Of a stretch of DNA of 64,000 nt, positions 8,287-22,386 are shown one piece after another. The DNA is taken from assembly GCA_027262695.1 (NCBI GenBank), contig GCA_027262695.1_4722.1; one strand, 5' to 3'. The translations under genes were made by a program, and so were the position numbers. Origin of the DNA: a phage. Position 1 is the stretch's first letter, and the number at the start of each line of letters is the position of its first letter. A model generated the notes under the pieces. The model was not told the DNA's origin. It saw only the letters and a program-made list of their open reading frames with translations, and did not search any database.

Positions 8287-10899
8287 TTAAGCGTCCGGCG
8301 TAAAATCAAAAGGAATGTCCGTACGAATGATATCATAACGTTTTCCGAGGAAATAAAACTCTTCGGGAACCTGGCCTGGAATGATGCTATCACCGATGAA
8401 CTGCGGATACGCCCAGATGTACTGAGTGAGTCCTTCGAACATATCCAGGTTATTTGCGTGGTTACCCATGATACGTTTCCAGAGTTCGCGTTTATACGGT
8501 GTTTTAACATCGAATCCATAAAGCGGTGCAAGATCTTCACCAGGCACAAATCCCAGGTAGTAATGGATCTGACTGACCGGGAAACCAAGCGTGTCTCGCG
8601 GAATGGTGATCGCTTGCTCAGCTTTGGTGACATGCGTTTCAATAATCCAGTCATAACACTCCGAATAGAACCGATCGAATTTCTCTGGATTATACCACGC
8701 TTTGGGAAGGTTGAGTTTCTCCGTGAACGCATTCGACATGATCGTCGGCAAGAACGGAAGAACGCCGGTTTTGATCTGCGTGTATTTCGATTTTACTCGG
8801 TTAACCAGATTCCAGCAACTGTATCCTAACTGTTCGTTACAAAACTCAACGTAGAGATCGTAGTCGCCACCGGATAACGGGTTGTTAATATCACCGATGT
8901 CTGCGGCATATTTGTCAGGATATTGGTTATTGAAAGCCAGTTTGGTTTGGTAGTCGTAGATACACGGTTTGTTGTTCGCCGTGTTGATCCACCACCAGGG
9001 TTCACCTACTTGTACACAAATGTCCTGGACATGAGGATAGATGATATCAGCAAATGCTGTTAACACATCCCCTAACCACGCCATCGCATATTGGTTACAC
9101 GGAGACAGCAACCAAGACGGCGGCGTGTATCCGGTTGCTGCGATATTCCCTTCCCAATCTTGCTGTGCCCACTCGAACGGACACGCTGTACTCATCAATT
9201 CGTAACTTAAACTGATGGTTACAGAGAAATGGTGTTTTGCAGCGAGTGCGGCGAAAGCTTCATGCCATGCAATACAGGGCGGATTTAATACATCCGTGGT
9301 GTTCACCAGTAGCTTACCCGCACTCGGCGTCCAGACGGTGTCGTAGAAATGCGACATTCCAACATAGTGTACTAATTCATCCTGATATCCCGCATACACC
9401 AGGTTCTCGAACACGCGTTCTGGCGTGATGTTATAATGGTCATCATAAGCGGTTATCGCACGAAGTTCGTGTGGTGCGCAGTGGTGACGATTAACGGTCA
9501 TTTCCTGATACACCCCATCGATAGGAAGAATCTCGATGGTTAAACCGAGGTCGATCGGTGTTTCCAGATAGGTCGTTTCAGTCGCATCTTCCTTATAATG
9601 TCGAGAACTCATGCTGAACATCAACGACGTTACCGATTCAAGTTCGATGGGCTCGTCAGCATAGAACCCCGCCATTGCGTCATTAAAATCGATCGTCACG
9701 GTCGCGCTTGTACCGTCTTCGGAGACGTCGGTCGCATATCGGGTTAATGAGATATACTGACGGCTATCGTCTTTGTGTACGACGGTTAAAACCGGCGGGT
9801 TTTCGGTATCCGCAAAGTTACGCTGATCGCCGGTAAACGTGACCTTTGCTTTAAAGATCAAACCGAGTAACGACGTCATGGGATCATACGCGATACAACC
9901 GTGATCCAGCGTATCCGTTGTCCGCCATTCTACCCCGACCAACCCGTTAGCGGTATGACATCGCATATACGCGTTAAGAACCATGTCTTCACTGACGACC
10001 GCGAAGTTCTCTGTTGATTGACCGTTGATAATCCAATACATCGGTTGCCAAAGATTGCGAGTACCTTTTGCATAGCGGTAGGTTGGTGTACCTTTGGGGT
10101 TGCCATTATTAAGATGAAATACGGCAGTACCTTGATAATGGTCGTTCGTATTAATCGGAACGCTATAAGCATCACCGAGATCCGTACGTTCCACTTTTGT
10201 AATAGCGGCATTCTCAAACAACCCACGTAGCGCTGGTAAACCGATATCTGCAGGTGCGTTTTCACGACGTATCGCATCGGCAATACGATGAGCTAAGGCT
10301 GGGTAAATGACTTCACCTTGTTGCAGGTTCGCAAGCCCCGCAAAGCGATCGGGATCGATACCGGCAATTAACAACTCGATATCACCTTTCGTTCTATCGT
10401 CGTGAAGATATTTCAGTCCGGTAAGGTCGAGATGTTGAATAAGCGATAGCAGGTTGTATTTACGGTTTTCGACGGTTAGTTCGAGATCGCCTGCCCAGAC
10501 CAGACTTTCGTCATCGGCTGTTAAAGTAACGGTTTGTCGACCTGTGGTAGATGTCGTCGTTATCTTATTTAATTGCTCTTGCAGGAAGTCTGTTGCAAGG
10601 TCAAAGGCAACGCCGTAGCGATCGGCGACCGTTTGCATGATTTCACGTAACTGGGTATCTTCTTCAATGATAACCTTGATAGGTATTCCCAAGAAAGCTT
10701 TAGCGAGGTCCCGTTTAACCATCGAGACAAATACGGATTTGTAATATCGGCTTCCATCTTTCCCTTTAAAAAGAATGGAGGTTGTTTCGGGTGACGATAG
10801 AACACGTGCAAATTCAACATCGTCGAAGGTAAGAGAAAGTCCGTTTTTCTCGTTGGTCAATCTTAGTATTTCATTCTGCGCGGTTTCATGTAACTTCAT
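8287..10899 (-). CDS. tail fibre/tailspike protein with conserved N-terminal attachment domain
   Basis: 870-aa ORF; N-terminal ~150 aa shares motif VKRDLAKAFLGIPIK and ADRYGVAFDLATDFL with three other genes in the locus; AGAGG RBS. Confidence 0.65.
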   Translation of the reverse strand: MKLHETAQNEILRLTNEKNGLSLTFDDVEFARVLSSPETTSILFKGKDGSRYYKSVFVSMVKRDLAKAFLGIPIKVIIEEDTQLREIMQTVADRYGVAFDLATDFLQEQLNKITTTSTTGRQTVTLTADDESLVWAGDLELTVENRKYNLLSLIQHLDLTGLKYLHDDRTKGDIELLIAGIDPDRFAGLANLQQGEVIYPALAHRIADAIRRENAPADIGLPALRGLFENAAITKVERTDLGDAYSVPINTNDHYQGTAVFHLNNGNPKGTPTYRYAKGTRNLWQPMYWIINGQSTENFAVVSEDMVLNAYMRCHTANGLVGVEWRTTDTLDHGCIAYDPMTSLLGLIFKAKVTFTGDQRNFADTENPPVLTVVHKDDSRQYISLTRYATDVSEDGTSATVTIDFNDAMAGFYADEPIELESVTSLMFSMSSRHYKEDATETTYLETPIDLGLTIEILPIDGVYQEMTVNRHHCAPHELRAITAYDDHYNITPERVFENLVYAGYQDELVHYVGMSHFYDTVWTPSAGKLLVNTTDVLNPPCIAWHEAFAALAAKHHFSVTISLSYELMSTACPFEWAQQDWEGNIAATGYTPPSWLLSPCNQYAMAWLGDVLTAFADIIYPHVQDICVQVGEPWWWINTANNKPCIYDYQTKLAFNNQYPDKYAADIGDINNPLSGGDYDLYVEFCNEQLGYSCWNLVNRVKSKYTQIKTGVLPFLPTIMSNAFTEKLNLPKAWYNPEKFDRFYSECYDWIIETHVTKAEQAITIPRDTLGFPVSQIHYYLGFVPGEDLAPLYGFDVKTPYKRELWKRIMGNHANNLDMFEGLTQYIWAYPQFIGDSIIPGQVPEEFYFLGKRYDIIRTDIPFDFTPDA

Positions 10900-10921
10900 T
10901 GAAAACCTCTGCCCTTTAGAA

Positions 10922-11563
10922 TTAGATGTACTGCTTACCGCCCACGAAGGACGTTAGCCAGTTCCCGCTGACGAGCTGTGACGCCCAACCTGGAACAGCT
11001 TTACCATTCTGGCTCATGATGTTACCACACCAACCAGGGAATCCGGGACGGATGTAATAGAAAGTTAAATTGTAGAGATGGCAATTCCATACCGCAACGT
11101 TATGTTTACCAGAAACCGCTTTAAAGACAAACGCGACAGGTAAAGGAGACGATAACAATTCGGTCACAGGGACAGCTGACCAGTTCGCATTCGCGTTCCA
11201 TGGTTGCCATGTATGGCTACGCGAGTCGCAATATACGTTACCGTTGTTACCGCGCCCACCCGCATTCCACCACAGCGACGGACTCATGTTCTTAAGTGAG
11301 GTAAATTGCTGCGGTGGAATATTAGGAATAATAACAGGGTTGGTACCTTGCCCATGTTTCTTTTCTTTTGCGTTCACATACCCGCTTATCGATTCGAGGT
11401 ATTTGACACCAGGATAATTATTCTGGACTTGTGTCGCAATATCACGAACATCGAACGTCCAGCAGATCATGGTGTTGTAGTAAGCATCGGTGTTGTCGTA
11501 CCATGCGTTACCATCTTGTAAACGTGCGCCACTATTCGGTGTTTTATCTGTGTTTATAGCCAT
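10922..11563 (-). CDS. hypothetical protein, paralog pair member with conserved C-terminal module
   Basis: 213 aa; C-terminus RPGFPGWCGNIMSQNGKAVPGWASQLVSGNWLTSFVGGKQYI shared with 11573-12340. Confidence 0.55.
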   Translation of the reverse strand: MAINTDKTPNSGARLQDGNAWYDNTDAYYNTMICWTFDVRDIATQVQNNYPGVKYLESISGYVNAKEKKHGQGTNPVIIPNIPPQQFTSLKNMSPSLWWNAGGRGNNGNVYCDSRSHTWQPWNANANWSAVPVTELLSSPLPVAFVFKAVSGKHNVAVWNCHLYNLTFYYIRPGFPGWCGNIMSQNGKAVPGWASQLVSGNWLTSFVGGKQYI

Positions 11564-11572
11564 AGTGTTGTC

Positions 11573-12340
11573 CTATACTGCGATGATTGAGATATCGGAT
11601 GCCGGATGTGTGTTGCCATCAGGTGGTACGTACAGAAACACCCACAGATAAAACAGTAGCTTCTCTAACTTCAATTTAATTGAAGTTAGATATTGTTTAC
11701 CTCCAACAAACGACGTTAACCAATTACCTGAAACAAGTTGCGATGCCCAGCCAGGCACTGCCCTACCGTTCTGGCTCATCACGTTACCTGCCCATCCCGG
11801 AAAACCCGGTCGGAAAATATATACTTGAATATGTGTTAAAGCGTTATCATTACCACCGCCAACAGCAACGTTACGACTCCCAGATGACGGGAAATATTCT
11901 TTTAAGAACAGAGGATCGGTTGCTAATAAAGATGCGGGCCAAGGGTTCGCGGATGCATCAACATCGAATTCGGTCCATCGCCATTTACGTCCCGTGTTGA
12001 ACCATGTCGATGTACCACCACCCCTCACGGCAAGATTGCGCGCATCACGGACATTATAAATTGATTCGATGTTACGCCATCCACCTTTTGCAGCGTTTGC
12101 CGCATAGCAAATCGCATTACCACCATTCTTCTTCTCGTAAACGGTTCGTTTGATATGAACACGGTCGATGAACGCTTCACCGTATTTGTTGACGAGTGTT
12201 TGTGCAATATCACGAAGATCGTGCATGTGAAAAGCGATGTCTTCGTTATGGAACCATGTTGTCTGGTTCCAGACGGTACCGTTTGGTTCGGCACACATCG
12301 ATCGGATATTGTTGCGTTGATTAATCGCGATAAAACCCAT
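11573..12340 (-). CDS. hypothetical protein, paralog of 10922-11563; conserved stop position lost
   Basis: Start set at ATG 12340 (AGGAACGAGG RBS) rather than the ORF-track start that reads through a hairpin; C-terminal 43-aa extension relative to paralog. Confidence 0.5.
   Translation of the reverse strand: MGFIAINQRNNIRSMCAEPNGTVWNQTTWFHNEDIAFHMHDLRDIAQTLVNKYGEAFIDRVHIKRTVYEKKNGGNAICYAANAAKGGWRNIESIYNVRDARNLAVRGGGTSTWFNTGRKWRWTEFDVDASANPWPASLLATDPLFLKEYFPSSGSRNVAVGGGNDNALTHIQVYIFRPGFPGWAGNVMSQNGRAVPGWASQLVSGNWLTSFVGGKQYLTSIKLKLEKLLFYLWVFLYVPPDGNTHPASDISIIAV
11664..11690. repeat. AT-rich perfect palindrome between the two paralog genes
   Basis: tctaacttcaatttaattgaagttaga. Confidence 0.75.
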
Positions 12341-12395
12341 TGTATACCTCGTTCCTATTCTCAAAAAGGAAATTTCATACGATGACGCCATAGCA

Positions 12396-12425
12396 GCTCC
12401 TCCTTCCCTTACGGGTTGGAGGAGC
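12396..12425. promoter_or_regulatory. GC-rich stem-loop, variant of the family
   Basis: gctcctccttcccttacgggttggaggagc between lipoprotein stop and next start. Confidence 0.55.
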
Positions 12426-12433
12426 ATACTTAA

Positions 12434-12940
12434 TTACTTGCTGATAACCTCAACGGAATTGGGATCAGCGATCAATGCGCGGTCGGTAGAACAATTGAAG
12501 AAGACCATGCCGACACCATCGCCGTTCGAGTTCAGGGTTGAACTTGCGTAAGACAGGGTTGGTTTATTCATGCGGTAGAAGCGTTCGCTGGTTGTGGTAT
12601 TGAACCCCAGATCAACGTAGTCTTTCACCGTGGTATACAACTGTGTGGATTCGAAAACGGTTACCGGAGAGTCAACGGTAAATTGACTACCTTCATCCAC
12701 AACCAGAACTTTATCGTTCCAGATTTCAGTGGTTGAAAACTTCGGTTTCCAGTGTTCGAATTCCTGGGTTGCGCCCCAGCAAGAATAAACAGCGAGATTG
12801 CTGTTCTTCTCAACAGGTTTCAACCCCACCAGTTGTGTCAGGTCTTTATCCAGGTTCGGTAAGCCTTCCAGCGTAGCGCACCCACCCAGAGAAAGTACCA
12901 TCAACATACCAAGAACGATCGCGCAGAGTTTTTTCATCAT
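12434..12940 (-). CDS. putative lipoprotein
   Basis: Start at ATG 12940 with AGGAA RBS; N-terminus MMKKLCAIVLGMLMVLSLGGC (signal peptide plus lipobox-like LGGC); immediately downstream of long tail fibre gene. Confidence 0.55.
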   Translation of the reverse strand: MMKKLCAIVLGMLMVLSLGGCATLEGLPNLDKDLTQLVGLKPVEKNSNLAVYSCWGATQEFEHWKPKFSTTEIWNDKVLVVDEGSQFTVDSPVTVFESTQLYTTVKDYVDLGFNTTTSERFYRMNKPTLSYASSTLNSNGDGVGMVFFNCSTDRALIADPNSVEVISK

Positions 12941-12988
12941 TAGATTTCCTTGTGTGTTAACGGAAGTGACTTCCATAAGGATTGATGA

Positions 12989-15900
12989 TTACTTTTTGAG
13001 CGCTTTAAGTTCTTCTTCCAACGCTTCCACTTTTGCCGTAAGCTTCTGTACTTGTTTGATTAATGGAACCACCAAACGTTCGTACATAACACCTTCAGCG
13101 ACGAGTCCGTTAGAAGAAACGATGGCGGGGTCATCTTCTTCGGTTGCATCACGCCAGTGCACGTATTGTGGTGCTATCTCACCAACCTCTTCGGCAATCA
13201 ACCCATACCAACCCCAATCCTTGTTGTCCGCTTCGCAGGTAGAACGATACCAAACAGGACGCATCTCCAATACTTTATCCGCTTGTTCATCCGTGATATT
13301 CTCGATATCTTTCTTATAGCGACGTGACGACGTTGAACGGAACACATTGTTGATCCCAGCAACAGGACTGATATACATATTAGCCCCGCTGGTTGTAGTG
13401 CTAATGTCCCATACCGCAAATCCGCCGTTACTCCCATTTTTTACTACCAACGTATTGGCAATAATGTCCAGGTTATTGTCGTACCCGGTTAACTGGTTTT
13501 CCGTTACATAACTGGATAGGTTAACCGAGTAGTTCTTACTGTTATAACAACGACGCCATCCTGGGCTGTTGGTGCTGCCGTTATAGTTGTCGTAGCTATA
13601 AATGAACTCGGAGTTGGTTTTCGCACCACTGACGGAAGATGTGGTTGCGGTGGTAACACGGATGGTGTAGTTTGTCATCCCGAAGCTAACGACCTCGATA
13701 ACAGCGCCAGCCAGAGGGATGATCCCGCATTTGGTTTCACTGTCTGGGATGTATGCGCTATCGGCAGCAGCGAAGGAGCAACGTGCGACCCAAGCACGAG
13801 TGTTGAAGGCTCCATGGTTTTGCAGTAATGTGATAAACGAGGACGTTGTAATCGAGCTGTTATTATCACCGGTGATCAACCAGCCGGTTGGACATGCAGT
13901 TGCACCAACGTTTTTCGCTGTTAGCGTGATGTTCTGTGATCCGTCGAAGGCTACGCCGCTAATAGTACGCGCAGTCTGTAGCTTCGTCGCCGTTGCTGCG
14001 TTCCCTGACGTGTTCTGGTTCCCTGCTGTGTTAACACCCGGCAGATCGATGTTTGCACTACCATCGAAAGACACCCCACCAATCGTTCTTGCCGTTTGCA
14101 ACTTCGTTGCGGATGCCGCATTCCCTGTGGTGTTTTGGTTGCCTGTTGTATTCACACCCGGGATACTATCCTTAGATGTGTAGATCTGTGCCCATTCCGA
14201 CCAGTTCGCATCGGTTGTATCGCGACGTGAACGTAAATAAGCTGGAGCGTGCGCACCCGAGGTACCCGACCATCCAATGAGGATTTCGCCTTCGCCGACC
14301 GATGAAGCACCTTTAAGATGAACAACGTTACCGTAGGCTGTAGGGTATCCGTTATTGTACGCTTCATACATCTGGATACCCGTGTTGCTGCCCTGGGTCG
14401 CATTAGCTAAAGCGGTGACCCGTCCCTTGGAAGCGAGCGCGTTAATGCTAAAGCTAATATCAGTTGTACCATCAAAGGCGACCCCATTAATCTTCCGTGC
14501 TGTTTGGAGTTTCGTGGCAGTGGCCGCATTACCAGAGGTACTCTGATTACCTGCTTTGTTCACGCCTGGTAAATCAATGTTGGCGGTTCCATCGAAGCTG
14601 ACGCCGCCTATTGTTCTTGCTGTAGCGAGTTTCGTTGCTGTGGTTGCAGCATTACCAACCTTTAACCATTCGCCCCATGGACCATCGATGCCGTTCCATG
14701 ATGCTGTTAAACTACGTACGTAAATATTTCCGGTACGTACAGTGTAACGTTGCGTTCCACCGAACTGTCCAGCTGGGAGCACTTCGATATAACCTACCGC
14801 GTTTGCTTCAGGGAAATTGTGGGCAACATCAGCATTCGTTGATGTTTGTTTAGACCAAATACCTACGGACTCCTCTACCGGACCGTAGGTATCCAGATTT
14901 GCGTCGGTGGGGAGCTGTCCTCGAAAACGTCGGAATAATGATGCTGTTAACCCCAACGTTGTTTGCATTCCTTGAACGCTTGACTGCGATAAAAGCGCCC
15001 GCGCTGTCGACGTAATGGCAGCTAAAGCAACCTTGTCGGCTCCGGTGAAAAATGGGAATTTGTTCGCCGAGGTCGTTAAGCCTGAAAGGGCTGTTAGTAA
15101 TGCGTTAAGGGGTTGTTTTCCGGCTAACGCGTTAGTTATCGTCGTTGCGAAATTAGGATCGTTGCCTAAAGCTTGAGCCAGCTCATTAAGCGTATTTAGC
15201 GCTTCTGGAGACGAGTCAATCAGCGACGCGATAGCACGCATTACAAATTCCGTGTTGGCAATCTGTTGACTGCTATCATTCTCTGCAGCCGTGGGCGCTG
15301 CTGGGATACCGGTGAATACAGGGTTATTAAGATCTGCCTTGAGGGCGATGAGACGTCTAAGCGCTTCAACATCGACTCTCAGGTTTTCCCATCCGACGAG
15401 ATAACCTTCACCGGTTGTGTGATAACGGTTGTACCAAAAATCGCCATTAACACCGAAAAAGAATATTCCCTTCTCTTCGTATTGTGGGTCAGAACCGTTC
15501 CGCGATGAGCTAATGTATTTTATTTCGATAAGGCCGTCTAATACCACTCCTGGGATAATTTTGTCGTTTCCATGCGATTGTGATACCTGGTACACCCCCG
15601 GCGTTGCGGTTCTAATCCACGTTAAGAATTCCGATGTTCCAGCGTTACCGCTAAAATGCTTGACGTCGGTGAGTATCGCACCAAAACCGAACATACCTGG
15701 TAAAGCAACTCGTCCATCGGTACGGTCACGAATATCTGTCGCAACAACGGGCAATTGTTTACGAACGTCATTAACCGCTTTAGGTGTTGCTGATTTTGTC
15801 TCGTCGTCGCTATCAATATCATTGCTCAGGATGGTCAGTCCTCGAGTATCTGTGGTTGCATCAGGAAGAAACGCATTATCCAACACCTTAAGCTGTATTG

Positions 15901-16306
15901 CATCCGTGTTACTAACAGCAACATACACCTGGCAGTTAAGAACGCTGGTTGCGCCTTCGGTGGGCACAGGCTTATATCTTTCTGGTGCGCTGCAGACGGC
16001 GACCAGAACACCTTGATCGTCATACAGACCGATCTCACGTACCCAGAACCCACCTTGACTGGTGGGAATAATGCCTTCAACAATAATCCGGGTTGTGTCG
16101 TCAACATCAATGCGGATGTTGGAAACTTCCCCACGATAAACTTCGTGTATAAGTGCCGTTTGGCTAGCATCGGGGGTTGGTGTAGAGCCGTTACTGTCAC
16201 CAACGGCAAAATGCGTGATTTTTAGTTTCTCACCGTCAGGAAGTAATGCTGCGGTGATACGTTCTGCGCCTTTATCGGTAATAACCGTTTTATATGTTGT
16301 ACTCAT
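12989..16306 (-). CDS. long tail fibre: P2 gpH-like N-terminal domain, tandem fibre repeats, C-terminal S74-type intramolecular chaperone
   Basis: 1105 aa; N-terminus MSTTYKTVITDKGAERITAALLPDGEKLKITHFAVGDSNG matches tail-collar fibre proteins; repeated ATKLQTARTIxGVxFDG units; C-terminus YGLIAEEVGEIAPQYVH with coiled-coil tail typical of the autocleaving chaperone domain. Confidence 0.8.
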   Translation of the reverse strand: MSTTYKTVITDKGAERITAALLPDGEKLKITHFAVGDSNGSTPTPDASQTALIHEVYRGEVSNIRIDVDDTTRIIVEGIIPTSQGGFWVREIGLYDDQGVLVAVCSAPERYKPVPTEGATSVLNCQVYVAVSNTDAIQLKVLDNAFLPDATTDTRGLTILSNDIDSDDETKSATPKAVNDVRKQLPVVATDIRDRTDGRVALPGMFGFGAILTDVKHFSGNAGTSEFLTWIRTATPGVYQVSQSHGNDKIIPGVVLDGLIEIKYISSSRNGSDPQYEEKGIFFFGVNGDFWYNRYHTTGEGYLVGWENLRVDVEALRRLIALKADLNNPVFTGIPAAPTAAENDSSQQIANTEFVMRAIASLIDSSPEALNTLNELAQALGNDPNFATTITNALAGKQPLNALLTALSGLTTSANKFPFFTGADKVALAAITSTARALLSQSSVQGMQTTLGLTASLFRRFRGQLPTDANLDTYGPVEESVGIWSKQTSTNADVAHNFPEANAVGYIEVLPAGQFGGTQRYTVRTGNIYVRSLTASWNGIDGPWGEWLKVGNAATTATKLATARTIGGVSFDGTANIDLPGVNKAGNQSTSGNAATATKLQTARKINGVAFDGTTDISFSINALASKGRVTALANATQGSNTGIQMYEAYNNGYPTAYGNVVHLKGASSVGEGEILIGWSGTSGAHAPAYLRSRRDTTDANWSEWAQIYTSKDSIPGVNTTGNQNTTGNAASATKLQTARTIGGVSFDGSANIDLPGVNTAGNQNTSGNAATATKLQTARTISGVAFDGSQNITLTAKNVGATACPTGWLITGDNNSSITTSSFITLLQNHGAFNTRAWVARCSFAAADSAYIPDSETKCGIIPLAGAVIEVVSFGMTNYTIRVTTATTSSVSGAKTNSEFIYSYDNYNGSTNSPGWRRCYNSKNYSVNLSSYVTENQLTGYDNNLDIIANTLVVKNGSNGGFAVWDISTTTSGANMYISPVAGINNVFRSTSSRRYKKDIENITDEQADKVLEMRPVWYRSTCEADNKDWGWYGLIAEEVGEIAPQYVHWRDATEEDDPAIVSSNGLVAEGVMYERLVVPLIKQVQKLTAKVEALEEELKALKK
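13880..14640 (-). repeat. two blocks of degenerate ~66-bp tandem repeats inside the long fibre gene (phage tail fibre repeat units)
   Basis: Recurrent DNA units such as ccatcgaa(a/g)g(a/c)cac(c/g)ccacc(a/t)at.gt.cttgc and corresponding protein repeats NIDLPGVNxAGNQxTSGNAATATKLQTAR. Confidence 0.6.
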
Positions 16307-16312
16307 GGCGTT

Positions 16313-16840
16313 TTATCCCGGGTAAATAGCGATGACATCACCAATGACAGTTGCCGCACCAGCGTATAAATAAGCTGGAGATGCCTCACGTTGGTTTGTC
16401 ACGGTAAGATCCAATTGTCCACGCCAAACCATGGAGGTATTCGCGATGGGAATCGAGATCTTCTTGGATGTGTCGTCACGAAAATCAATGACAGTAGCAA
16501 GGATAGCTGAATCAAAATCGACATCGGTTTCAAAGATGAATCCGTACTGATCTGAAATAGCTTGTATAACCGCTCTTATAGTTGTTGTTTCAACCGACTC
16601 CAAAACGATTTTTATCGGTATCCCTAGAAACGCTTTCGCGATATCACGTCGTGCGTAAGTGATAAAACTTTCACCACACCACCTTGTTCCTTCATTTGCT
16701 GTGACGATCACTTTTGCCCTGTTAGCACCAGAACTCCCATCCAGGGTTAAAGTGAGATCGGAGTTACTGAACACGCTACCGTTACGTTGGTTTATCAACG
16801 TAATCAGTTCGTCTTTCCACGGCAGGTAAAGTGAACGCAT
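16313..16840 (-). CDS. tail fibre N-terminal attachment-domain protein (putative adaptor)
   Basis: 175 aa from ATG 16840 (GGAGG RBS); contains shared motif YARRDIAKAFLGIPIKIV; stop 6 nt before start of long fibre gene. Confidence 0.55.
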   Translation of the reverse strand: MRSLYLPWKDELITLINQRNGSVFSNSDLTLTLDGSSGANRAKVIVTANEGTRWCGESFITYARRDIAKAFLGIPIKIVLESVETTTIRAVIQAISDQYGFIFETDVDFDSAILATVIDFRDDTSKKISIPIANTSMVWRGQLDLTVTNQREASPAYLYAGAATVIGDVIAIYPG

Positions 16841-16953
16841 AAGCGCACCCTCCTCCAACAATCAAATTAAGATGCAAAACGCCTCGAAACCGGAGTGCGA
16901 TTCGAGGCAAACGTAAACAGTCTTAACGACCGCATAAAATTCCGCGCATATTA

Positions 16954-16965
16954 CCCCCCCCCCCC
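16954..16965. repeat. C12 homopolymer (G12 on coding strand), intergenic
   Basis: Twelve consecutive C between stop of 16997-18751 and start of 16313-16840. Confidence 0.9.
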
Positions 16966-16996
16966 TCGCTTCGTCGAGGTAGGGGAGGATAACACT

Positions 16997-18751
16997 TTAT
17001 GCCGCTACATACCCAGGCCAACGTTCTCTTGGCCAGTTTGTTGCGCCCTGTCCAACGTTGTCCTTACCAGAAGTTACATTACTTACGTCCCAACCACTAA
17101 GATCCTGGTTAAATGCGGTGTTGTTGCGCATCATGAGGTCGATCCTACGTAACGATTGGGTATTCCAGCCGGAAATGTCTTGGTTGAATGCCGCGTTGTA
17201 AGCAAACATGTTAACAACGTCTTGTAATTTTGAAGTGTTCCAGCCGCTTATATCGCTATTGAACTGCATGTTCGAGAACATACTGCTAGCGTTGACAAGA
17301 CTACCTGTTTTCCAGTTAACCAGCTTGTCCCCATCAAGTGCATCGCAGCTACTGAACATGTAACTCATGTCGTTAACTTTGGATACATCCCATTTATCTA
17401 ACCCGTTACCAACGAACTCGTAACAAGCTTGGAACATCCAGCTCATATCGGTAACCTGGCTCACATTCCATTTGCTAAAGTCGAGGTTGAGTTTTGCGCA
17501 TCCGGAGAAGGTTTTATACATACTGGTGATACGACTAACATCCCATTCTTGAATGTTAGGATCATTAAGTATAGATAAGAATTGGAACAATTCGTCTAAC
17601 GACGTCCATTTCTCTGGAATACGGTTTGGTACTGTACGGAGCGATGAAAGGTTATTGGTTGACGGAGAGCGGAACATACCGTTATCCCAATTTACGATTT
17701 CCGTAATGTTGTACCCACGGATCGTTTGGCGTCCATTACCATTATACACAGACCCTGTTGCAGTTATTGTATATTCGTTTGTATCAGCATACGTATGTTC
17801 AGCCTGTGTAGGCCACTCACCTATTACATCCCTATTCCCATCACCCCAATCGATGGAAATATCTGTCCAACCATCAAGATCTAGGGTAACGGTCCCGCCA
17901 TTGGTCTTCAGGACGTATTTACCTGCATTGTCGGTATAATAACAAACAATCATCGCACCGTACAGGTTACCAATTTGCCAATCATCCTTTTGAGTTACCG
18001 CGATATGTGCTGTGCCACGTTGTAGGAAAAGAACCGTACGGTTCTCGTCAGTCTGTAATGCGGTTAGTGCCTGAGTCTTATCATCGTCGGTAATTTCACC
18101 GGCTTCCACTAAAGCACTTAACATTCTTTCGAAGTATTCGATGGGTAATTGGCGTCCTACAGACATATCAACTGATGGAACAGCGAGATCATCCAATGCG
18201 GCGGCAGTTGCAAGCACTAATGATCCATTGGTGGTGCCTGTTTCTTGGAGGTAACGCAGTCCCGTAATCTGGTACGCTTGAATGATTGTAATCAGATCCA
18301 GCGTATCGTTAATGACCTGTACTTGTAAATGTCCAGACCAAACATAGCTGCTTTCAGCAATCGGTAATTCGACCGACTGAATACCCGATGTTTCAAAACT
18401 GATCTTCTTATTAAGATCGGCTTCCAGGAAATCAACCGCGAGGTCGAAATTTATACCGTACTTTTCAGCGATGGAATCTATGATGTTCCTGAAAGCAACA
18501 TCGGTACTTACGATGAATCGTAAAGGGATTCCTGTGAACGCATTAGCAATATCTCGACGAACATACGTAAGTGATTGTTCGAAGAAATAGGGACTGTTAT
18601 CTCCAGGTTTGATGGTTACCTGACACATTTCAGGATGTTCAGATGGGATGAACGATTCAAATTTAACATCGGATTCCTTCAACGAAAGCATGTTCTTCCG
18701 GTTTACCAGCGCCAGAAGATCGGCTTTCCATCCAGGATAAACAGTAGACAT
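16997..18751 (-). CDS. tail fibre protein with C-terminal DUF285-type (WxVSxVTxMxxMF) repeats
   Basis: Start at ATG 18751 (GGAG RBS); N-terminal shared domain (YVRRDIANAFTGIPLRFIV); C-terminal repeats KWNVSQVTDMSWMF, DISGWNTSKLQDVVNMF, DLSGWDVSNVTS. Confidence 0.65.
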   Translation of the reverse strand: MSTVYPGWKADLLALVNRKNMLSLKESDVKFESFIPSEHPEMCQVTIKPGDNSPYFFEQSLTYVRRDIANAFTGIPLRFIVSTDVAFRNIIDSIAEKYGINFDLAVDFLEADLNKKISFETSGIQSVELPIAESSYVWSGHLQVQVINDTLDLITIIQAYQITGLRYLQETGTTNGSLVLATAAALDDLAVPSVDMSVGRQLPIEYFERMLSALVEAGEITDDDKTQALTALQTDENRTVLFLQRGTAHIAVTQKDDWQIGNLYGAMIVCYYTDNAGKYVLKTNGGTVTLDLDGWTDISIDWGDGNRDVIGEWPTQAEHTYADTNEYTITATGSVYNGNGRQTIRGYNITEIVNWDNGMFRSPSTNNLSSLRTVPNRIPEKWTSLDELFQFLSILNDPNIQEWDVSRITSMYKTFSGCAKLNLDFSKWNVSQVTDMSWMFQACYEFVGNGLDKWDVSKVNDMSYMFSSCDALDGDKLVNWKTGSLVNASSMFSNMQFNSDISGWNTSKLQDVVNMFAYNAAFNQDISGWNTQSLRRIDLMMRNNTAFNQDLSGWDVSNVTSGKDNVGQGATNWPRERWPGYVAA

Positions 18752-18789
18752 AAGCACTCCAATCATGGGGCGGTTACCGCCCCCATCAG

Positions 18790-21700
18790 TTAAATTGTCG
18801 GTTTCACGTCGCGTAATAGGGCAATATAATAGCCTAATCCTCGGAGGATCTCCCCACTCCAGAAACCAAAATACATTCCGTCTCTGCCGAGATTAGCACT
18901 ATCTGGTGCAGGACTCCACCCACCATTCATTGCGTCATCAACGGTGTAATGATTGATGTAGTTTTCAGCGATCTCGTTATAAACGTTAACAGCAACAGGA
19001 TAGCCTTTATCGTTGGGATGTCCGTACAACATCGCTAACGACGCACCCGCCAGCCATAATCCTGCCATGTGACCAGTAAAGTCATTCGGGATAAACGCAG
19101 GCGGTTTCTCCATTGGAAAATCCGTTGGTGATTGATAAGCATTTTCCTGCTGGAACGTATATAAGAAATCGATCCAATGACTGATGTAATGGGTTAACTT
19201 CTCAGGGACAGTTAATTTACGATCGATCAATCCCGCGTAAAGCCGTACCGCTGAAAAGAAAGCCCGCGGCTGATAACCAGACCATGCTGTTTGATCGCCG
19301 AAGTGGTACATCGTAAAATCATTGACCTTTGATCCGCTTGGCGCATCCCAACGATCCCACACGTACGCACTCGCACCCGGCCCTAAAACACCGAACTTCT
19401 GATAGTACCATTGCTGTGAGTCATACCAGAAATCCACAACATTCTGAATCATGAGGTCACGACGTTCAGCCGAAACGTCCATATCCAGGAAGACCCACGG
19501 ATGCTGGTAACCCGGATAAGGCTGACCACGCCAGCTGTCGAAAGTCGGTGCATTAGGGATATAGTTGTTCGAGAACGGAATAATACCTGGGGTATAAGGT
19601 AGTGGATCAAGACGTTGGTTAACAATCGTGCAGTCACCAACACGTAATGTTCCTTCCGCTTCAAAGGTTGCTTTCAATGTAAACAGCATGGTATATCCGT
19701 CATCCGTGGCGTAAGTTGATGGTGGATTGTTGATAGCGTAAAGCTTAAACATACCTTCAGCAACACCGCTGTCATCTGGCAAGAACAGAATTTCGGTTGA
19801 ACCATCACCCCATACCGGCGCAGAAGGTTTAGGATCGGTATCAGCATGATTCGGTTGATATCCTGAAAGTGTCCAACCATCAGCAGCGAGCGTTAAGGTA
19901 CTTCGTGCTGTAGTGGTGGGGAGCATCTGCCACCAGCGCCAACCATTTGCATCTTCTACACGGACGTTGTAATCGATCGATGCGAAATAACTGATCTGCC
20001 TTACGATCTGCTTTGCCGTTGGATTGAATTCAAATTGCCCGCCTGCCGCAGTAAGCTGCGCTTTTAAGAACAGCCCATCCCAGGAATCTTCCACAGCTTC
20101 GCTGAACTCCGTGGTGATTGCCACGTCATCCTTCCAGCCGACTTTATCCGCCGATATCAATACAGAACCTGTAACAGCATCACCGGTTGGCGTTGAAGCT
20201 TCATCAACCGCATCAGCAGGAATCAACGCGCCTATTTTGAAATCCCATTCTTTCGGTTCAACGCTGGAAGGTAATACCAGCTTGTACGTTTTGGCTTTCG
20301 CTTCGGTTTTGTCCAAAGAAAGCGATAGTGAGATCTCAACCGGAATTGCAACGCCCGCTGCATCTTTACCTCCGCAGGTTACACGAAGAATTGAATCGCG
20401 ATTGACGCGGAACGGAATGGCCTGCTGTTCAAGGTAAATCTGTGCCGAAGATGCTTGAATCACGATCCAACCGTCAACATCACGTGTGATCGTGAACGGT
20501 GCTTTCGATGGATAGGTATACGTGTAAGCGATACCGTCGGTGTCGTAACGATCGGTTCCTTTTACCTGGCGGAAGAACTTGTCATTCGCATCAATGCGGG
20601 TATATTCCTCAATCGTAAACAAAGATGCCTTATACGCTTTCTGATAGCGCTCCTGCTGCGTTAAACGGTATAAGGTGTAGGCTGCTTCACAAAACCACTG
20701 TTCAGCGTCTGATGCGTTTCCCATGTAGTCTCTGGTGACCGGTACCTGAATTGGTCGGTTATGCTGACACTCATTCGTTTTAATGAGATATCCGCCATAT
20801 TCAACAGGTACACGGGGTGCCCATGCAACCAAATAAGAACCGGTAACGGATTTATCTTTGAGTACGATAGTCCCTACCTCGTCATCCGCACACGCCTCAA
20901 GATCTTCACCGTCCGCTGTTACGTAACGTTTTGTCCGCAACGCCACTTTCTCAATAGGGAATACGGTACCTTTTGTATTCCAGTCAATCGTCCCATTTTC
21001 ATTCGTCTTGAACACATCCGCATTTAGATTTTGCCATCCAAGCTTACCCTCATAGACCTGAACAACAAGATCCATGTATTCCCCGAACGTTGGTGAACCG
21101 TGAGGGATCTTACCGATTCCGTTGGTAAACACAACCGCGGTATCATGGAAACCACCATGTGTTGGGTAATCGTCTTTCGCAAGCGGGTAATGAGCCAACA
21201 CCGGCTGTTTCCCATTAACAATCCAGTTTGCTATCCAACGTGTTGGGGTATCCGGTGGTTCAAGTCCTGCATAGAACGCTTTTACGTACGCGTCGAACGA
21301 TGATTCCGCTAACGTAAGAAAATGGGCTTTAAGCTGGGTATCGTCGGTCGTATGACTGAAAATGCTTGCACCCAGGATTAACAACGATTGTCCTTCCGTT
21401 GTCGCGTCGCCATCCGGTTGTGCTTCCTGACGCGTTGCTGCGATAAAGTGACGGTTATTCACCAACACACCGCTTTCATTCAAGACGTAATGATCGGTTT
21501 CAGGATCGGTAAACGTTCCTGTATTTCGCGTTAAGAAGCGAGCGTGGCCGTAACCAACGAAATTCACCGGAGACGCTGTGATCATCCATTTACCGATAAG
21601 TTGTGCGACGTCCTTATAACGTTCCGACGCCGCGATCTGTTTTACGTACCAGTCTTGTCGATTGAACGTCCAAAGCAGGAAGTAATACGTCTTATTGATC

Positions 21701-22386
21701 TCCATTACCGGAAACGTGGGCGTCAACGGTTCCAACGTTAAATAGTTACTCCAGTCAATCTGACCACCAACAACCGACGGGGTGATTTCAAGCAGTTGGC
21801 ACCATTCGTAACGTTTCGGTTTCGCATCGTAGGTAACTGGCAATGACTGTTTATACGTTCCGACACGGTTCAGGTTGTACTTCTTCCTGGCCGATCCTAA
21901 ATCAACGTAAATGCTAGAACTCGAACTCGCTCCGTATGTACCTAAACCACCCAACGTTGAACGGTACAATGAAATAAACAACGTATCTTCCCAGTAGGGA
22001 TTATCCTCGGTAGGTTCTAACGCAATCTGAGCGGATATCGAGTTCCATGTACCGAGTTGATACGTTGCGTCGAGAGATTCATCCGTGAAGTACGACTCTG
22101 GTAAGCTGAGTTGATACCTTTCGTTAATTAATGCTAACGCGGCACGACCCGTAATATCTTCATTACCAGTTTCTTTCTTTACGATCGCGCCGAATGGAAA
22201 CAACGTTGCAAATGAACGTTTTGGTTTATTTACGGTTACCGTTCCTGTGTAGCTTCCTGTTCCCGTGAGTTGTTGGCCATCAACTGTTGCGGTAACGTTG
22301 ATAGTCGCATCTGGAACGTTCGTTTTGTTGAGCGTGTTTAGTTGCTCGATCAGTTCGCGTTTATCGTCAGGCAGAAATGTTGCCAT
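18790..22386 (-). CDS. large tail fibre/tailspike protein (1198 aa), distal domain of unknown activity
   Basis: Longest ORF in window, within fibre locus; N-terminal region weakly similar in pattern to shared attachment domain. Confidence 0.6.
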   Translation of the reverse strand: MATFLPDDKRELIEQLNTLNKTNVPDATINVTATVDGQQLTGTGSYTGTVTVNKPKRSFATLFPFGAIVKKETGNEDITGRAALALINERYQLSLPESYFTDESLDATYQLGTWNSISAQIALEPTEDNPYWEDTLFISLYRSTLGGLGTYGASSSSSIYVDLGSARKKYNLNRVGTYKQSLPVTYDAKPKRYEWCQLLEITPSVVGGQIDWSNYLTLEPLTPTFPVMEINKTYYFLLWTFNRQDWYVKQIAASERYKDVAQLIGKWMITASPVNFVGYGHARFLTRNTGTFTDPETDHYVLNESGVLVNNRHFIAATRQEAQPDGDATTEGQSLLILGASIFSHTTDDTQLKAHFLTLAESSFDAYVKAFYAGLEPPDTPTRWIANWIVNGKQPVLAHYPLAKDDYPTHGGFHDTAVVFTNGIGKIPHGSPTFGEYMDLVVQVYEGKLGWQNLNADVFKTNENGTIDWNTKGTVFPIEKVALRTKRYVTADGEDLEACADDEVGTIVLKDKSVTGSYLVAWAPRVPVEYGGYLIKTNECQHNRPIQVPVTRDYMGNASDAEQWFCEAAYTLYRLTQQERYQKAYKASLFTIEEYTRIDANDKFFRQVKGTDRYDTDGIAYTYTYPSKAPFTITRDVDGWIVIQASSAQIYLEQQAIPFRVNRDSILRVTCGGKDAAGVAIPVEISLSLSLDKTEAKAKTYKLVLPSSVEPKEWDFKIGALIPADAVDEASTPTGDAVTGSVLISADKVGWKDDVAITTEFSEAVEDSWDGLFLKAQLTAAGGQFEFNPTAKQIVRQISYFASIDYNVRVEDANGWRWWQMLPTTTARSTLTLAADGWTLSGYQPNHADTDPKPSAPVWGDGSTEILFLPDDSGVAEGMFKLYAINNPPSTYATDDGYTMLFTLKATFEAEGTLRVGDCTIVNQRLDPLPYTPGIIPFSNNYIPNAPTFDSWRGQPYPGYQHPWVFLDMDVSAERRDLMIQNVVDFWYDSQQWYYQKFGVLGPGASAYVWDRWDAPSGSKVNDFTMYHFGDQTAWSGYQPRAFFSAVRLYAGLIDRKLTVPEKLTHYISHWIDFLYTFQQENAYQSPTDFPMEKPPAFIPNDFTGHMAGLWLAGASLAMLYGHPNDKGYPVAVNVYNEIAENYINHYTVDDAMNGGWSPAPDSANLGRDGMYFGFWSGEILRGLGYYIALLRDVKPTI

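Follow-up and report, generated by a model that had tools for sequence, protein, structure and literature searches.

The 64,000-nucleotide stretch of DNA analysed here (the window; contig GCA_027262695.1_4722.1 of NCBI GenBank assembly GCA_027262695.1) carries on its minus strand a complete tail-fibre gene, a single open reading frame (ORF) of 1105 amino acids (aa) at 12989..16306. In the ORF list the fibre ATG lies 6 nt past the stop codon of the gene upstream of it. The locus was 85-88% identical at the nucleotide level to that of Escherichia phage vB_EcoM_Goslar (Goslar), a 237-kb member of the Chimalliviridae, and the fibre gene corresponds to Goslar gp90, a protein that was found in virions by mass spectrometry (bioRxiv 10.64898/2026.04.21.720040). 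When compared with PHROGs the protein fell into many tail-fibre families. We are confident that it is the long tail fibre or receptor-binding protein of a Goslarvirus, made of a collar, a repeat shaft and a distal cassette with a predicted self-cleaving S74-type chaperone, and that it diversifies by exchange of its tip and by gain and loss of repeat units. The gene is laid out as follows.

12989..16306, minus strand: complete tail-fibre gene, single ORF, 1105 aa, 117.9-kDa precursor; homologue of Goslar gp90
15884..16306, minus strand: collar domain, aa 1-141, of the P2 gpH / Mu S / P1 S type (PF12571)
15761..15856, minus strand: single Phage_fiber_2 unit (TRGLTILSNDIDSDDETKSATPKAVNDV), aa 151-182 (PF03406)
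14657..15760, minus strand: proximal shaft, aa 183-550, holding the SSPEALNTLNELAQALGNDPNFATTI segment and two apparently globular stretches
14414..14656, minus strand: repeat block 1, two 40-aa units, aa 551-631, placed by motif positions and the repeat hidden Markov model (HMM)
14126..14413, minus strand: 96-aa inserted domain, aa 632-727, which separates the repeat blocks and which some relatives lack
13886..14125, minus strand: repeat block 2, two 40-aa units, aa 728-807; the last of them forms the left-hand joint of the exchanged cassette
14656-14588, 14533-14468, 14125-14060 and 14005-13940, minus strand: the four repeat motifs
13532..13885, minus strand: knob, aa 808-925, homologous to the phage Mu fibre S/S' (gp52)
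13331..13531, minus strand: distal tip, aa 926-992 (67 aa), which would be exposed after cleavage
12992..13330, minus strand: S74-type intramolecular chaperone, aa 993-1105, 13.0 kDa
13328-13330 (Ser993) and 13313-13315 (Lys998), minus strand: predicted catalytic dyad, with the predicted scissile bond between Thr992 and Ser993
12978..13903, minus strand: exchanged cassette (tip and fused chaperone), delimited by blastn breakpoints against Goslar

The identical 1105-aa protein is present in NCBI under the label 'phage tail protein [Escherichia coli O157]'. The exact gene was also located on the 248,053-bp contig ABJYRE010000004.1 of GCA_027262755.1 and in an independent Logan assembly of run SRR22857733. 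The window is the genome of a lytic, nucleus-forming jumbo phage (Goslarvirus, Chimalliviridae) co-assembled with an E. coli O157 isolate, and the phage belongs with the Goslarviruses that were termed 'bacterial assembly-associated' or 'persistent' in 2025. Two reports describe Goslarvirus genomes inside assemblies of bacterial isolates (PMC12768965, in which the genus grows from 1 to 237 genomes; bioRxiv 10.1101/2024.12.31.630880), and Goslar-like phages were found in hundreds of assemblies of pathogenic E. coli, Salmonella and Shigella isolates. The string 'tail fib' was absent from the text of both reports, and the host-recognition parts of Goslar-like phages are not known to have been described.

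Pfam matches were judged against the curated cut-offs (gathering scores). The N-terminus of the fibre matched Phage_tail_fib (PF12571) over aa 1-141 at 144.4 bits (cut-off 23; E 3.5e-42), covering 1-140 of the 150 profile positions and confirming its reading as gpH-like in an earlier note that had been made from the letters of this DNA alone. Many columns of the domain were invariant across 49 relatives, and we infer that the collar anchors the fibre at the baseplate as a presumed homotrimer. It is followed by the single Phage_fiber_2 segment (PF03406, 30.8 bits against a cut-off of 22), which aligned with residues 100-141 of the Mu fibre (8ju3). Within the proximal shaft aa 355-414 matched the tail collar fibre gp4 of PDB 9d93 (E 2.6e-9), and two apparently globular stretches lie at about aa 185-312 and aa 457-550, their limits being estimates from sequence. 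BLAST among the four apparent globular stretches of the fibre detected no significant similarity. Among relatives P0031, P0032, P0053, P0059, P0060 and P0066 the stretch preceding the first repeat varied from 460 to 898 aa and some forms carried Gp34_trimer (PF21446), so that the proximal shaft is modular as well.

The collar domain also bears on where the fibre sits on the virion. The protein could in principle be another virion appendage, perhaps a fibre of the collar or whisker type, or a component of the DUF7941 fibre cloud, as the Goslar map leaves fibres and peripheral baseplate unassigned and the fibre gene sits among DUF7941 fibre genes. We consider this very unlikely, as the N-terminal domain is of the gpH/S type found in the baseplate fibres of P2, Mu and P1, the fibre protein has no DUF7941 domain and the collar filaments of Goslar have been assigned to gp126. 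A tail fibre held at the baseplate is the reading that we retain.

The shaft distal to this region is built from repeats. The motif GNAA(T/S)ATKLxTARxIxGVxFDG occurred four times, starting at aa 551, 592, 728 and 768, in two pairs that flank the 96-aa domain, in agreement with the two blocks of fibre repeats reported earlier. No further copy was present in the six-frame translation of the window, and none arose in 2000 shuffles of the protein (0/2000). The repeats had also been described as DNA repeats of about 66 bp. This did not hold, as the unit is 40 aa (120 bp) and 66 bp corresponds only to its 22-aa conserved core. The cores were 68-73% identical in DNA versus 82-91% in protein, with third-codon-position identity near random and a longest common exact run of at most 9 nt. 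Because the copies are conserved at the protein and not the DNA level, Tandem Repeats Finder and a default repeat finder reported no repeats in the gene, while a repeat search with a seed of 8 recovered three 101-nt copies at 70-73% identity. The 40-aa GNAATATKL units matched no Pfam or NCBIfam model, and the phage-fibre-repeat HMM that had been proposed for the internal repeats gave its sole match (PF03406) in the other segment, at aa 151-182. A profile of the repeats weakly matched the trimeric C-terminal stalk of phage L Dec (6e3c, E 0.001), which suggests that the 40-aa units may form a trimeric triple beta-helical stalk. Literature searches with the text of the repeat motif returned nothing, and those on fibre repeat number and length returned nothing relevant. 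The inserted domain between the blocks was 87% identical to the aa 864-959 region of the Goslar protein and was missing from relatives of 929-1049 aa.

Comparison of repeat number between isolates, run as the earlier note had suggested, showed length variation. With the repeat HMM we found relatives with 2-8 units before and 1-4 units after the inserted domain, and relatives carried 2-12 repeats in total. Some had no inserted domain, lengths stepped by 40 aa, and in the alignment the differences in repeat number were all in register. The clearest case was a 929-aa gene from another E. coli O157 run, SRR22175737, whose DNA matched that of the window gene at 97-100% identity from end to end. The sole difference was a clean 528-bp gap corresponding to repeat 2, the inserted domain and repeat 3, with its junction in the linker GCAGG(T/G)AA(T/C)CAGA, where few bases are exactly identical. 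A 1009-aa relative had near-identical flanks with another repeat block and no inserted domain. The proposal that the repeats are hotspots of recombination and length variation thus stood for the length variation itself, seen in the unit counts and in the in-register 528-bp gap, but codon divergence leaves the repeats ill-suited to homologous recombination within this genome.

These length differences could alternatively be short-read assembly artefacts rather than polymorphism, and most relatives do come from short-read assemblies of isolates or metagenomes. One of them, the 362-aa P0123 on a 74-kb Logan contig, looks collapsed or frameshifted; its collar runs to about aa 166 and is joined to the end of the knob at about aa 905, with the last residues frameshifted, which makes it an extreme deletion mutant or else a product of misassembly. 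As a general explanation, artefact is nevertheless hardly credible. The repeats were 68-77% identical in DNA with exact runs of at most 23 nt, too divergent for collapse, and the 1105-aa gene was identical in the NCBI and the independent Logan assemblies. Every variant was in frame and differed by exact multiples of 40 aa, and several of the length classes each represent many member sequences. We therefore treat the gain and loss of units as real variation of the fibre.

The distal end of the protein carries the chaperone. Peptidase_S74 (PF13884) matched aa 993-1049 at 34.2 bits (cut-off 22), over positions 1-57 of the 58 in its profile, and YGLIAEEVGEIAPQYVH falls within this match. The last ~36 aa were predicted as one long helix with a predicted local distance difference test score (pLDDT) of 86-96, so that the modelled fold ends in the long helix expected for the trimeric coiled coil of an S74 chaperone. 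The C-terminal S74-type chaperone and coiled coil named in the earlier note are thus both supported, the first by the HMM score, a conserved Ser/Lys dyad and the fold, the second by this predicted helix. Across 24 aligned homologues, which were 43-75% identical to the query, the residues R990, S991, T992, S993, S994 and K998 were invariant. The profile of these homologues matched three solved structures: the T5-like L-shaped tail fibre 8hqz_d (E 2.3e-7) and, at marginal significance, the phage S16 distal fibre (6f45) and the MyRF ICA domain (7dc3). The Ser993/Lys998 dyad (i, i+5) aligned with the SxxxxK of the T5-like fibre and with Ser1264/Lys1269 of T5. In T5 pb1 the Thr1263-Ser1264 bond is cut with the help of Lys1269 (PMC4690869). 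As the dyad is kept and aligned with that of T5, cleavage is predicted between Thr992 and Ser993, which would yield a 104.9-kDa mature chain of 992 aa and a 13.0-kDa fragment.

Another reading of the same domain is that it acts as an uncleaved folding or trimerisation module, or is cleaved yet stays bound as a cap, so that the mature fibre keeps it. For Alteromonas phages separate chaperones that remain on the fibre tips as transient caps are reported (PMC10579305); in the window fibre cleavage is a prediction, and the Foldseek similarity to 3gw6 was weak. Against this, Ser993/Lys998 and the RSTSS residues were invariant in the 24 homologues and aligned with a T5-type cleavage site, and in T5 the Ser1264Ala form stayed uncleaved and gave no adsorption inhibition, unlike the cleaved domain (PMC4690869). 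We judge a retained domain to be unlikely and favour a chaperone that releases itself. The tip just upstream of the predicted cut was the least conserved part of the cassette compared with prophage homologues, with gaps in the alignment, and by analogy with T5 pb1 (PMC4690869) it is likely the receptor-contacting end.

Comparison with Goslar by blastn indicated that tip and chaperone were exchanged as one piece. DNA homology ended at about 13904, the end of the last repeat, and restarted at 12977 with 95% identity, placing the right breakpoint 12 nt beyond the fibre stop codon. Between these points 926 bp here replace 1056 bp in Goslar, where they comprise the tip and a Tfa gene (L001 11340-12395). 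No Tfa (Caudo_TAP) gene was found directly downstream of the fibre, where the next gene is a homologue of Goslar_00088; the Goslar Tfa gene falls within the replaced segment. The ORF at 12434..12976 was considered as a Tfa replacement and ruled out, as it is the conserved Goslar_00088 homologue (96.7%) and is present in all loci examined. An invertible tip of the Mu/P1 type was also ruled out, as there were no suitable flanking inverted repeats. In 10000-17500 no inverted repeat longer than 27 nt was detected at 70-88% complementarity, and there was no second tip on the other strand.

The best-scoring 120 relatives were sorted by their C-termini and fell into four classes: the S74 cassette, an S74 variant, Gly_rich_2, and a 141-aa tip ending ...WLKFAG.... 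The S74 variant shared 88% identity overall; its tip was nearly the same, and its chaperone had diverged further. At the loci examined no Tfa gene was found for the S74 classes or the ...WLKFAG... class. The S74 cassette was 95-100% identical in ~45 relatives, and the N-terminal 450 aa of these fibres were more divergent. In the composition profile the cassette region showed no clear anomaly. Neither the 5,426 complete E. coli genomes nor the 50,697 phage records searched yielded a close donor of the cassette (>80% nucleotide identity); partial or better matches at ~70% nucleotide identity occurred in 870 of the 5,426 E. coli genomes, none of them spanning 80% of the cassette. The chaperone part was 61-69% identical to short S74 proteins of Drexlerviridae, and the knob resembled the S proteins of P1 and Mu. 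The fibre had been called a mosaic of domains otherwise seen in different phage lineages. The mosaic is real, as seen in the Goslar breakpoints and in the recurrence of this distal module in fibres of lambdoid prophages and of its chaperone in Drexlerviridae proteins, but the combination is common in enterobacterial phages, and so are its parts.

Taken together we propose that collar aa 1-141 would fix the fibre to the baseplate as a homotrimer and that the shaft would consist of globular inserts and 40-aa units, the stalk probably being trimeric and beta-helical. The distal 300 aa would form a self-contained cassette of a Mu-S-like knob, the 67-aa tip and the S74 chaperone. The chaperone would nucleate folding of the trimer from the C-terminus and, on the model of T5 pb1 and the K1F endosialidase, would then release itself by cleavage between Thr992 and Ser993 with Ser993/Lys998, freeing the 13-kDa fragment and leaving a 992-aa (104.9 kDa) mature fibre with its tip unmasked. 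Within the genus the tip is exchanged together with its folding aid, with the last repeat as the left joint. That aid is a chaperone fused to the fibre here and a separate Tfa in Goslar, and the third tip class has neither. Units of 40 aa are also gained and lost whole and in register, sometimes along with the 96-aa domain.

Several points weigh against this proposal. Cleavage, the trimeric state, the attachment site and the role in receptor binding are all things that we infer. The full-length AlphaFold2 (AF2) monomer model failed (mean pLDDT 30.9) and yielded no domain boundaries, which is why the limits in the proximal shaft come from sequence only, and the tip at aa 926-992 was modelled at low confidence as a monomer. 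The Goslar cryo-electron microscopy (cryoEM) map left the tail fibres unresolved (bioRxiv 10.64898/2026.04.21.720040). Homologous recombination between repeats is not an obvious mechanism because the copies share at most 9 nt exactly and their codons have diverged. Finally, the 528-bp event may be a deletion or an insertion.

A wider reading, which we offer tentatively and regard as rather doubtful, is that one genus of 'persistent' lytic jumbo phages may retune host recognition by two quick, modular changes at one gene, where the tip is swapped together with the folding aid, if any, that it needs and the length changes in 40-aa steps even between phages that are 97-100% identical. If this is true, the codon-scrambled repeats would be a protein-level joint that tolerates in-register junctions through microhomology of a few bases. 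The length of the fibre may follow the surface of the host, such as the depth of O-antigen or capsule, in E. coli O157, Salmonella and Shigella carriers. The gene maps where the fibre varies, how tips and folding aids pair up and where maturation is predicted to occur, which is useful for host-range prediction or engineering. The general understanding of phage fibres is unchanged, since mosaic fibres, S74 chaperones and repeat joints were already established. What is added is the exchange of a tip with its chaperone within one jumbo-phage genus, a 528-bp in-register length change seen between phages that are nearly identical, and a predicted cleavage site that can be tested.

Several neighbouring genes, all on the minus strand, were also noted. 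Upstream of the fibre three consecutive genes (18790..22386, 16997..18766 and 16313..16861) carry DUF7941 at their N-terminus and are among the proteins that the Goslar cryoEM preprint proposes as a 'DUF7941 fibre cloud'. The gene at 16997..18766 encodes 589 aa with DUF7941 and DUF285 repeats; it is not in Goslar and is present in S74-class relatives. On the other side lies the lipoprotein-like ORF 12434..12976 (MMKKLCAIVLGMLMVLSLGGC), which was the next gene after the fibre at each of the Goslar-like loci that we examined. Its identity to Goslar_00088 is 96.7%, it falls into phrog_9559 (function unknown), and homologues occur in jumbo phages of Erwinia and Salmonella; these 168-180-aa lipoprotein-like homologues after the fibre gene had no Pfam match. 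A phage lipoprotein beside a receptor-binding gene is reminiscent of the exclusion proteins T5 Llp and T1 Cor, a comparison that we make tentatively. The ORFs at 11573..12427 and 10922..11563 are adjacent paralogues with 35% identity whose C-terminal ~45 aa are nearly identical (PGFPGW.GN.MSQNG.AVPGWASQLVSGNWLTSFVGGKQY), and neither matched Pfam, PHROG or NCBIfam. The 284-aa ORF at 11573..12427 extends 37 aa beyond this shared end and is found neither in Goslar nor in a locus of the third tip class (L004).

Among known systems the closest is Goslar gp90 (Goslar_00090; QBO63883.1, 'tail fiber repeat protein'), which shares the locus, neighbours, collar, Phage_fiber_2 unit, proximal shaft, 40-aa repeats and 96-aa domain, with 71% identity in amino acids and 85% in nucleotides over the first ~800 aa. 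Unlike the window fibre, gp90 is 1324 aa long, has 11 units (7+4) versus 4 and 32 additional aa at position 457, and ends in Gly_rich_2 followed by a separate Caudo_TAP gene, gp89 (Tfa), whereas the window has the Mu-S-like knob, the tip and the fused S74 chaperone. T5 pb1 and the K1F endosialidase have a similar C-terminal chaperone of ~113-133 aa from the same Pfam family, with a Ser/Lys i,i+5 dyad after a Thr and a terminal coiled-coil helix. In both, cleavage has been shown, whereas for the window fibre it is predicted; sequence identity is low, and the part upstream of the chaperone is a Mu-S-type knob here rather than the pb1 bullet domain or a sialidase.

The distal half has its nearest counterparts in prophages. 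The side tail fibre (Stf) of a lambdoid E. coli prophage (WP_077764199.1, NZ_CP039404.1; 1108 aa, downstream of lom) has the same order of repeat, domain, two repeats, knob, tip and chaperone, and a 512-aa E. albertii fibre protein (P0124) has the same distal architecture. Both were 58-61% identical in amino acids (58% for the lambdoid Stf) and ~69% in nucleotides over aa 592-1101 of the window fibre, and no tfa gene was found downstream of the lambdoid fibre. The N-terminus of the prophage fibre is of the lambda Stf type and its host element is a temperate siphovirus prophage, in contrast to the lytic jumbo myovirus of the window. Mu gp52 (S/S', PDB 8JU3; Mori et al. 2024, as cited in PMC11821841) combines a collar-type N-terminus with a knob as the window fibre does, and in the structural alignment window aa 789-928 were 44% identical to Mu residues 194-323. 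Mu, however, has separate chaperones U/U' and an invertible G segment, whereas the chaperone of the window fibre is fused to the tip that it would fold.

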